A stretch of DNA of 64,000 bases from assembly GCA_965203055.1 (NCBI GenBank), contig OZ241863.1, positions 4,416,001 to 4,480,000 of the forward strand. The letters are read 5' to 3'. Positions 40,694 through 43,390 of the stretch are shown in pieces. The notes under the pieces are model-generated. The model did no database searches, was not told the DNA's origin, and was given only the letters and a program-made list of their open reading frames with translations. How positions within the stretch are numbered: the stretch's first letter is position 1; each line of letters opens with the position of its first letter. The translations under genes and the position numbers were made by a program. This stretch comes from Spirochaetia bacterium. GTDB taxonomy: Bacteria > Spirochaetota > Spirochaetia > SZUA-6 > Bin103.

Positions 40694-43390
40694 GTCTACC
40701 TCCCTGATCAGATAGTTCCTTACCCGGAGGGGCCGCCCGAGTACGCCGCTCTCTCCGCAGAGCCAAGCGCTGAGAATACCGCGATAACAATACTCGTGGT
40801 TATCCGTGAGCCGCCATACCTGCTCAGTACGTCGCTGACTCCTGCCGCCTCCATCACGGCGCGAACCGGATCGCTGGCGACTATCCCGGTACCAGGAGAG
40901 GCGGGCTCCAGCAGCACTGTGGTATCGCTGTATGAGCCCTTCATGGCGTGAGAGATTGTGTTTCCACGGCGGGGCACGGGTATCATCCTGCGTCGTGCGC
41001 GCTCGATACTCTTGCGGACAGCGTCGTTAGTGTCGTCCGACCTTCCGAATCCGTAACCGACGCGTCCCCCGCGATCGCCAACTACGACCAACGTGAATAT
41101 CACATACCGCGGACTGCCACTCGCGGTCTCCGTGGTGCGCCTCCAATCCACCAGCTTCGCAAGCCATCTGTCATCTTCGATGTTGCCCGAGGAAAGGATG
41201 TTGCCGCCGCGAAGCGCTGGGGGCGCCAGCAGTGAGCGTGCCTCGCGTCGTCTTGCAACGACAGGAGTCGCCACCGAACCGGATCTAATCCGCACCAAGT
41301 CAATCGCGTCCTGCGGATGACTTCGTGGACGTAGTCGAATAACGTTGTGCCTTCCGGGTTCGGCCAACGACGCGAAGGGCCTGCGCCATAGTCCAAGCTT
41401 ATCGAAGGGGTTCGGGATGATGTGACCCTTGAAGTCGATATCGGTCGGCTGTTCGGGACAGCGTACGATGATATGCGAAGCAGATTTATCTTGAGGGACG
41501 TCCAGTTCCGTACCAAGCAGCAAGGGATATTCCTTCCCCGTACTAGTGCGGACGAATATGGAGATTCCTGGAGGCGGGAATGTGAACGAGACAACTCTCC
41601 GGTCAACTGAGAAGGCAAGTATAGCGCGCAGATATCGCGCATCCTTTTGCAAGCTAAGCCGTCCGTCAGCCGTCCTTGTCAAGTGCTTAAGATGTGTCTT
41701 TGCAAGGTTTTCCGGAATCGATTCCGCATCGAACACAGCTTGGTCACGCAAGCCTCTGAGACTTGGCCAGTACCAGAATCCGTACCGATTCAGCGCCCGA
41801 TTCTGACTCTTGACGTGTAACGAAATCCTTACCTTACCGAACGGTCCGCGTGTGGGGAGGTTCAGTGGTGCAACAAGGTCTCCGCTGGGCCGTATGTGTA
41901 CGGGAATACGTGATATGAAGTGCATGCCGTATTCCAATTTGATCTCGAGGTTGTCGCTCAGGCCACTCACGTCTCCCCTCAGAACAACGGTACGGGGTTC
42001 TGCCAGAAGCAATCCGTCGGCGTGGCGTGCGACTCTGCAGCCGTCGACTTCCAGGTGAAGGCGGGGATCAACCTGAGCATTTAAGCAGGCGTCTCCTTGA
42101 GAAATGCACAAATCCTTCGAGCTCTCAGGATACAAGACGTACGCGTTCTGGCCAAGTTGATATGCGTCCTCTCCGTTGACCCGAAATAGCCGCATCGACA
42201 CCAGAGAGATCGAACCGGCGGGAATGCGCGGTACGCTGCGTGCTTGATGATTCAGCACTCCTTTGAGCCTGCCGGAGTCGCCATCGAACAGGAGAATGTC
42301 GGCTTGTGGATCTTTGAACAGCGGCAGGGACTGCCAGTTATTTCGCTCAGTGCTAGCCTGCCAGCGAACGCAACGCGGCCAGGGAGGTGACAAGACTGTG
42401 CCCTCTTGTGGATTCAAGGGTCTCGGCGGCTGGCTGGAATTGATGTCGACTTCAAGCGATTGCCCACGAGGCGCGGCTTCAATGCACAGCTCGCCGTCGC
42501 GGAACGTCAAGCAGGGTGGACGAGGCGCCGGACCATGTCCCCCGCTCAGTTCTTTGATTTCGTGGAGGACCCGGCGTTCGAAGTCGGTTGTGGGTTGGTC
42601 CCATTCTCGGAGTCGAACGTAGACGGTAGCGTGATAGCCGGTCGAATCCTCGCCAAGTATTTTGCGCAGCCTTGTCAAGTGTGTCGGAACGTGCTCCATC
42701 GCCTGCTCTTCCCATGACTTGACTTCAGCGGTGTCCTCGCAATCCGGCAGACCGGATTTTCGTTCGACACGCAGGAACGCGTCCACAAGCGGCCTGATCT
42801 GGCTGTGGGGAACACCAGCCTGAAACAGATAGTCGCCAATCAAGTCCTGCGTGCCGGGATACTTCGGCGGGAGTATGAGGCCATGTTCATTGCAGGCGCG
42901 TCGAAATCGATCATTGAAAGAGTCGCGGCGGTTCGTCGAGATCTCCATGCCGAGTCGGTGGGAGATCGGACCATAGCTCGCGTGGTCGGTATCCGGGCCG
43001 TATTGCTCCGCAAGAGTGGTTGCGACGGCCCAGACTGCGAGGAGGGGGTATTGTACGGTCACGTAATCAAGGAAGTTATCTGTTACTCCCCCGATTTCGG
43101 CTACTAGCGCGTGCTCGACGTCGCTGCGCATCGGCTCCGGTATGTCGTGGTGACCGATGAAGGGCGATCCATGTTCCCGTGCCAAGTGCCTTCGCAGTCT
43201 CTGTTCGGCTCCGGCGAGGGCCGCCATCCGCATCTCGTAGCTGGTTGGCATCGGTGGTATTGACTGTCCCGACCATGAGCCACTGGCGTCGTGGCCAAGT
43301 GACATTACCATAGTATTGATCGCTTTCCGGCGCAACCGGCGGTCAGCCGCCGCAGGCGGCAGATGTCCCGGTGTGCGCCGCACTGGTTGT
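35796..43390. other. Lower-GC two-gene insert splitting the suf operon
   Basis: Antisense orientation and weaker GC3 bias than the flanking suf genes; lies between sufC and sufD; no integrase or transposase inside. Confidence 0.75.
40720..43311 (-). CDS. Large helicase-partner protein (DruH-like position) with a C-terminal diverged ribosomal protein uS5 domain; start uncertain (43383, 43311 or 43251)
   Basis: Single open frame immediately upstream of the helicase; last ~140 aa align by eye with uS5 (VVVGD..[8 protein letters not shown]...A.RKS.E.ARR.M...T..H..KG.....V.L.[8 protein letters not shown].A...RAV.EAAGV.DVL...GS). Confidence 0.85.
   Translation of the reverse strand: [863 protein letters not shown]

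Follow-up and report, generated by a model that had tools for sequence, protein, structure and literature searches.

Why should a protein encoded beside an anti-phage helicase gene end in a ribosomal protein? The question was raised by a stretch of 64,000 nucleotides from a Spirochaetia bacterium (GenBank assembly GCA_965203055.1, contig OZ241863.1, positions 4,416,001 to 4,480,000 of the forward strand; the whole of this stretch is called the window here), in which a large accessory protein, named P0001, carries at its C-terminus a module of uS5, a highly conserved ribosomal protein whose N-terminal domain has a fold like that of the double-stranded RNA-binding domain. The gene for P0001 immediately precedes druE, in the same orientation and with a gap of 26 nt, which is the two-gene arrangement known for Druantia type III. 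This anatomy, a uS5 module in a Druantia-type gene pair, is considered practically certain. The Druantia type III-like system belongs to an already known kind, and the new feature is the accessory protein with a reused uS5.

The identity of the C-terminal module was examined by profile, sequence and fold searches. Both Pfam domains were found above their cut-offs, Ribosomal_S5 at aa 743-804 (E = 7.3e-14; 52 bits against a cut-off of 27.1) and Ribosomal_S5_C at aa 816-877 (E = 1.3e-16; 60.3 bits against 21.5). The NCBIfam model rpsE_bact (TIGR01021) matched aa 739-876 at model positions 3-140 of 156 with an E value of 5.8e-36, and the score of 123.7 bits missed the rpsE equivalog cut-off of 164.05. 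When the PDB was searched with phmmer, 168 distinct sequences were returned at E ≤ 0.001, the best 60 of which were all uS5, and the top match, 8fmw_E (5.6e-31), was aligned over 134 residues without gaps; a profile search of the PDB by sequence also gave uS5 only. Similarly, the best 50 PDB fold matches for the S5 tail were all uS5, with template-modelling scores (TMt) of 0.66-0.89 and mostly about 2 Å root-mean-square deviation. When all six frames of the window were scanned with a locally built S5 hidden Markov model (HMM), a single locus was found, at 40759-41178 on the minus strand, the rpsE of the genome itself lying outside the window. These results agree with a preliminary description of this DNA, which had proposed an in-frame uS5 with both domains in this interval, far from any ribosomal operon; no ribosomal protein gene was found among the 33 neighbouring open reading frames (ORFs) scanned. 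Thus, the module is not free-standing but joined behind 740 aa, as against ordinary uS5 of ~160-220 aa encoded inside a ribosomal operon.

The product of the gene following the accessory gene contains DEAD and Helicase_C domains and a C-terminal MZB/DUF1998 (MrfA zinc-binding) domain, with a Walker A motif GTGSGKT (aa 125) and a DEIH motif (aa 276), and no nuclease domain was found in the Pfam scan. PADLOC matched it to DruE1 (6e-167; 556 bits) and to DruE3 (1.6e-163), so that the downstream helicase of the earlier description could be named DruE. The scores covering only part of the models suggest a DruE branch outside the PADLOC v2 models. Because the next gene encodes a DruE helicase, the pair is a two-gene Druantia type III-like anti-phage operon, its role in phage defence being predicted from this gene content. 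The GC content of the pair is 58-63% as compared with 69-75% in the flanks, and a scan for promoters and terminators gave no excess of sites over shuffled sequence.

The longest ORF of the accessory gene begins with GTG, and the alignment of homologues, which begin with MPTSYEMR, indicated M45 (ATG at 43251) as the probable start of a protein of ~843 aa, close to the ~860 aa estimated before. In a full-length AlphaFold2 (AF2) model with a mean predicted local distance difference test score (pLDDT) of 78.6, aa 740-882 adopt the S5 fold. A second AF2 model made for aa 45-702 from 106 sequences (pLDDT 93.9; predicted template-modelling score 0.90) has an all-alpha domain, after which comes an all-beta region. 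The most conserved polar residues of the family, namely Q195, E225, D246, T248, H251, R259 and E269, are invariant columns and are all present in the alpha domain. The all-beta region (aa 291-700) is probably made of several tandem immunoglobulin (Ig)-like sandwiches, as judged by low-scoring fold matches: the Foldseek matches of the beta region were only multi-Ig or macroglobulin arrays, with TM scores of 0.05-0.25 in the PDB and 0.05-0.16 in BFVD. The stretch between the beta region and S5, taken earlier for a low-complexity linker, is predicted to be disordered (pLDDT < 50), and its identity among mid-distance homologues is 8-28%.

How widely the fusion occurs was examined by a word-seeded homologue search, which returned 23 relatives of P0001. 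Both S5 Pfam domains were present in 12 of them (P0003-P0014, 45-93% identical, one a fragment), and the remaining 11 (P0015-P0025, 908-1098 aa) were alike only over the first ~700 residues. When a profile of the N-terminal 700 aa was searched against 1.84 billion representatives, 593 clusters were found at E ≤ 1e-3 and 215 at E ≤ 1e-30. Most family representatives are 1,020-1,160 aa long, and the local S5 HMM, which detects S5 tails and no other type, found the module in 4 of the 150 representatives listed (P0009, P0013 and the fragments P0171 and P0246). The C-terminus of the long type (93 sequences, 434 columns) showed no similarity to uS5 (hhalign probability 0.08%); S5 has therefore probably replaced the long-type tail, and the idea of this tail as a diverged S5 was rejected on the same value. 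The nearest relative without S5, P0015 (1020 aa, 39-43% identical), has a third type of C-terminus, which is neither S5 nor the usual domain and repeats the RFWYWPGLRGL motif of the beta region. No fewer than three C-termini thus go with one N-terminal body: the common tail of ~400 aa, the internal repeat of P0015 and uS5.

In species-representative genomes, 23 long-type loci were found in Paracoccaceae, other Alphaproteobacteria, one Bryobacterales and one Anaerolineaceae. In 21 of these 23 loci, the partner gene is directly followed by a gene for a DruE homologue (43-57% identical to that of the window), and the two without a visible DruE are interrupted by contig ends. S5-type loci were not found in this collection, and the count of DruE pairing covers the long-type loci. 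Among other long proteins (487-1553 aa), a search for this S5 module gave six matches, all in its own family, the search being word-seeded, so that absence elsewhere is not implied. The nearest matches among free or split S5-like genes were ordinary uS5 at ≤54% identity. A tblastn search against plasmids gave 45 records with none covering ≥80% of the query; the best 25 of these 45 matched only the S5 part, and the annotated ones were rpsE.

The origin of the fusion was approached through two trees. In a FastTree of the N-terminal region with 80 rows (10 S5-type, 10 long-type and 60 representatives, taken as the first of 98 with a length of at least 820 aa), the 10 S5 rows fell on one side of a branch with support of 99. 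Constraining all 10 fused S5 modules together gave a slightly better likelihood and was not rejected (p = 0.538 in the approximately unbiased test). A single capture of uS5 is the simplest reading of these trees. Probably, a whole bacterial uS5 attached through a disordered linker took the place of the usual C-terminal 350-400 aa once, in one small clade. Among the 120 best free uS5, the seven that have an organism name are all from Spirochaetia, with an identity of 45-54%. An earlier proposal that uS5 of a spirochaete type was captured from the host lineage is therefore half right at best: the named near uS5 agree with it, and at an identity this low and with fused branches this long any assignment of the donor is tentative. 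The GC content of the window outside its islands is about 70-75%, which is not known to be typical of spirochaetes.

Could the fusion be without function, either as an assembly chimera or as a captured fragment in neutral decay? Fast divergence and the loss of the signature motifs of uS5, both taken up below, would fit such a fragment. A chimeric assembly was rejected, as 12 of the 23 homologues, at 45-93% identity, share the same junction and both S5 domains, and a decaying relic was rejected, as the frames are open and both domains are intact in these 12 homologues down to 45% identity. Furthermore, 20 columns including structural glycines and prolines are invariant across the 12 fused modules, and in close homologues the identity of S5 is 91-99%, as conserved as the rest of the protein. 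An accident or relic of this kind is thus hardly credible, and two of the outcomes that had been named beforehand as fatal to the proposal, a chimera and a decaying singleton, were not what was found. Because both domains are intact in 12 homologues and 20 columns are invariant, the S5 module appears to be kept under selection.

What has been kept and what has been lost was determined by comparison with 120 free uS5, which were the best matches to the module and are therefore a set biased toward similar sequences. Of the 86 columns with a conservation of ≥90% in free uS5, 37-52 are retained in each fused module, the module of the window having 52. In this module, the hairpin-loop consensus AKVVKGGRRFSF of free uS5 is altered, GIIAGGP has become GIVASDP and GSxNxMN has become GSRITTS. 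All three changes described earlier with a retained core are thus real against this set. Across the fused modules, the glycine/proline core is retained, and the AKVVKGGRRFSF hairpin, GIIAGG and SKSLGSxNxxN are lost and variable from one fused protein to another. The hairpin loop of uS5 contacts 16S rRNA. Of the 20 invariant columns of fused modules, 16 hold residues with a conservation of ≥90% in free uS5. All 12 fused modules have R805, at a position taken by I, M or L in free uS5. All 12 modules are basic, with a net charge of +4 to +13 and an isoelectric point (pI) of 10.0-11.5, and the body of the accessory protein is neutral (net charge 0, pI 7.4). In a uS5 tree of 70 rows, for which 10 fused modules were combined with alternate members of the 120 free uS5, and from which P0003, P0005 and P0008 were omitted, being near-copies or a fragment, the end branches of five fused modules measured 0.61-3.14 against a median of 0.038, the method being a quick one with the caveats of long branches. 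Judged by these branch lengths, the fused module evolves at least an order of magnitude faster than uS5.

Compared with ribosomal uS5 (RpsE), the P0001 module is thus alike in its two domains, which align along their whole length with no gaps and an identity of about 45-54%, in a fold within ~2 Å and in the core residues, and unlike in being fused, outside a ribosomal operon, below the equivalog cut-off and devoid of the signature motifs. Since the motifs are lost and the score is below that cut-off (123.7 against 164 bits), a normal ribosomal function is unlikely, in line with the earlier statement that normal function in ribosome assembly has been lost. A related possibility is that the module still binds 16S rRNA or the immature 30S subunit as a tether, by which the system would be localised or would read phage-caused stress in translation or assembly. 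The completeness of both uS5 domains, the superposition of the modelled tail on ribosomal uS5 at ~2 Å (TMt 0.66-0.89) and the basic nature of the module are as expected of such a tether. It is spoken against by the loss of near-invariant uS5 motifs, which are not conserved among the fused modules either, by the score under the equivalog cut-off and by the likelihood that the site of uS5 would be occupied in mature ribosomes and the incoming module would carry a body of 700 aa. In addition, the activities published for Druantia III, in the accessible parts of the reports, are all on DNA. Tethering to the ribosome is thus very doubtful and the least likely among the functional readings.

The position of the accessory protein suggests a different comparison, as it occupies the place of DruH, encoded by the gene before druE. 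DruH is described with six Ig-like domains between an alpha N-domain and an alpha C-domain, acting on 3' ends of single-stranded DNA (ssDNA) as a 3'-5' exonuclease (10.64898/2026.05.13.724313). In another study, DruH is an ssDNA binder without nuclease activity, and the ssDNA site was placed between Ig5 and the C-terminal domain (10.64898/2026.05.12.722862). It was also proposed as an infection sensor of late phage structural proteins, and phage structural proteins are reported to trigger Druantia III (10.64898/2026.05.12.724681; PMC13316683). The arrangement of two co-oriented genes for a large accessory protein and then DruE is shared with Druantia III-A of E. coli and P. aeruginosa; the order of a predicted alpha N-domain and then an all-beta region is the order in the described DruH structures, and Ig-domain arrays as the only result of fold searches were reported for DruH too (10.64898/2026.05.13.724313).

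The S5 module may act as a reused, basic module for binding nucleic acid or recognising a substrate, which would help the accessory protein to locate intermediates of phage replication or injection, or to keep them in place, for the DruE helicase. The nucleic-acid reading is favoured because the modules stay basic, R805 is invariant and the ssDNA site of DruH is near the C-terminal domain; it is offered tentatively, with a confidence that stops somewhat short of even.

Several observations weigh against this reading. PADLOC found no DruH match for P0001 even at E ≤ 10 and none for 16 relatives at E ≤ 0.01, and hhalign of the family alignments against E. coli YjiT/DruH gave a probability of 0.04-0.05%, so that the parallel with DruH is one of gene position and predicted architecture only. 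The DruH studies conflict among themselves, with an ssDNA binder, a 3'-5' exonuclease and a phage-protein sensor being described. The AKVVKGGRRFSF hairpin, which is the most conserved stretch of free uS5, varies more than any other part of the fused modules, and the net charge of free uS5 is higher (+10 to +19, median +15) than that of the modules. Furthermore, the S5 part is less conserved than the body in P0007 (46% identity in S5 against 70-81%) and P0010 (40% against 60-71%), and the same was observed in P0009 (51% against 64-69%). The faster evolution of S5 also fits a protein-sensing surface or relaxed constraint, and the fast divergence centred on the loop together with the flexible linker fits a protein-sensing surface equally well.

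In contrast to P0001, full-length YjiT of E. coli ECONIH1 was recognised by 12 PADLOC DruH models with up to 1828 bits (DruH3). A protein-language-model search placed the long-type protein P0018 beside clusters that carry YjiT_N/YjiT_2nd with scores of 0.90-0.91 and 190-195 shared features, and the score for the N-terminal part of P0001 was only 0.81; both are taken as leads only. The best 50 PDB fold matches (PDB to 2026-04-08) contained no DruH structure and consisted of generic Ig-domain arrays, including those of cell-adhesion molecules. The differences from Druantia III-A are thus that neither sequence nor profile comparison links the P0001 family to DruH, that P0001 has uS5 in place of the C-terminal alpha domain, and that DruE of the window is compact with 1633 aa as compared with about 2,100 aa in E. 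coli. Druantia III-B is described with a compact DruE without PLD domains. For the actinobacterial pair MSMEG_1253-1254 of M. smegmatis (1132 + 1667 aa; PMC13316683), the sizes and the described domain content of DruE (DEAD, Helicase_C and DUF1998 only) agree with those of the long-type relatives (1,020-1,160 + ~1,630 aa). The family may be the partner of the compact III-B DruE or of an M. smegmatis-type system. Among E. coli genomes, yjiT DNA is present in 630 of 5426 complete ones. In K-12, all that remains of a Druantia III pair is yjiT (505 aa) with the pseudogene yjiV, beside mcrBC (12415-16856 of the retrieved region), and in ECONIH1 the full-length YjiT/DruH of 1096 aa is followed by a frameshifted helicase gene of 6.3 kb (9001-18637 of the retrieved region).

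If the surface of the S5 module senses a protein, the module could be an integrated decoy that mimics host uS5, catches a phage factor that acts, by binding or modification, on uS5 or on the mRNA-entry side of the 30S subunit, and then licenses DruE. The location of the module on a disordered, hypervariable linker fits with this, and so does its arms-race-like rate, being faster than the body and with end branches of 0.61-3.14 against the median of 0.038. The proposal of DruH as an infection sensor and the triggering of Druantia III by phage structural proteins (10.64898/2026.05.12.724681; PMC13316683) point in the same direction. A decoy should however resemble its guardee, yet only 37-52 of the 86 conserved columns are kept and the modules are mutually divergent. 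The known triggers of Druantia III, as far as the accessible parts of the reports go, are tail or baseplate proteins and not ribosome-directed factors. No phage factor targeting uS5 turned up in the literature, and we know of none. In plant NLR immune receptors, integrated decoys are host protein domains inside an immune protein; the S5 module is alike in this concept and unlike in that it drifts from the host protein. The decoy in this broad sense is unlikely, and a true decoy guarding the uS5/mRNA-entry site of the ribosome, by which a ribosome-directed insult would be coupled to a DNA-directed helicase effector, is decidedly so.

A further explanation needs no ligand of the module at all: the S5 fold could replace the usual C-terminal surface for packing against the N-domain, dimerisation or contact with DruE. 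Interaction of DruH with DruE is required in M. smegmatis (PMC13316683), residue K1067, close to the C-terminal end of E. coli DruH, was mapped to a dimer interface that is coupled to nucleotide (10.64898/2026.05.12.724681), and the presence of yet another C-terminus in P0015 suggests that the position tolerates swaps. As a structural replacement packed in this way would need neither a disordered, variable linker of 37 residues nor a high positive charge, a purely docking or self-assembling role is rated low, and the reuse as a nucleic-acid-binding or substrate-recognition module stays the tentatively preferred reading.

The positions of the features of the pair and of the defence genes around it are collected in the table.

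Table. Location of the accessory protein, its domains, druE and nearby defence genes in the window
Feature	Position in the window	Strand	Basis or remark
Accessory-protein gene P0001, in DruH position	40720..43383	(-)	Longest ORF 887 aa, GTG at 43383
N-terminal all-alpha domain, aa 49-280	42544..43239	(-)	AF2 models, pLDDT about 90-97
All-beta region, aa 291-700	41284..42513	(-)	AF2 models
Disordered hypervariable linker (predicted), aa 701-739	41167..41283	(-)	pLDDT < 50 for aa 702-738
uS5 N-terminal domain, aa 743-804	40972..41157	(-)	Pfam PF00333 7.3e-14; PDB alignment; Foldseek uS5, TMt 0.66-0.89
uS5 C-terminal domain, aa 816-877	40753..40938	(-)	Pfam PF03719 1.3e-16; PDB alignment; Foldseek uS5
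Intergenic spacer, 26 nt	40694..40719	(-)	GGAGG 6 nt before druE ATG
druE, YprA/MrfA-type helicase, 1633 aa	35792..40693	(-)	PADLOC, Pfam, motifs
HmaC, N-terminal Swt1-like HEPN domain	14878-18177	(-)	
HmaB, DUF1156 methylase	21328-24231	(-)	
HmaA, SNF2 helicase with NOV_C	29301-32840	(-)	
Type II restriction enzyme	54018-55064	(+)	PADLOC 2e-129
Eco57I/TaqI-like methylase	55041-56798	(-)	Convergent with restriction enzyme

The druE pair is on the strand opposite to suf genes, with SufB/SufC-like genes at 33102-35755 on one side and SufD/SufS/Nfu at 43569-47332 on the other, and the low-GC insert of the druH-like gene and druE splits what appears to be a single suf operon (33102-47332). A scan for tRNA genes gave no match. 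An Hma defence system is located upstream of the pair (14878-32840), with five genes interspersed in it, encoding an M78/IrrE-like protein, one unknown protein, AAA_14+DUF4143, T5orf172 and AAA-ATPase_like+PDDEXK_9. An ATPase ORF at 11027-12487 gave a weak PtuA-like match (9.2e-14; 51 bits, far under the cut-off of 500) and may be a further defence gene beside Hma. Downstream of the druE pair, the restriction-modification genes (54018-56798) are in a patch of 54% GC. An open-ended ORF at 57852-64000 (>2,049 aa; GC content at third codon positions 0.95) gave no NCBIfam match at E ≤ 1e-10 for its first 1,500 aa.

A full-text literature search, which did not cover supplementary files, found no description of an S5 fusion in Druantia or any other anti-phage system, as the preliminary description had supposed, and the accessible parts of the Druantia literature contain no mention found of S5 or another ribosomal domain. 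The reuse of a core ribosome protein as a fast-evolving immune module is unusual, and it makes this rare case a natural domain-swap experiment, in which the known S5 fold at the C-terminal position of a DruH-like protein could reveal the role of that part, the function of DruH in Druantia III being disputed. The finding also points to a large family of partner proteins, 593 clusters in number, which are found beside compact DruE genes and are unrecognised by PADLOC v2. If the decoy reading were true, no earlier case of a ribosomal protein serving as a decoy in bacterial immunity would precede this module, and the C-terminal position of DruH-like proteins would be a swappable sensor slot.

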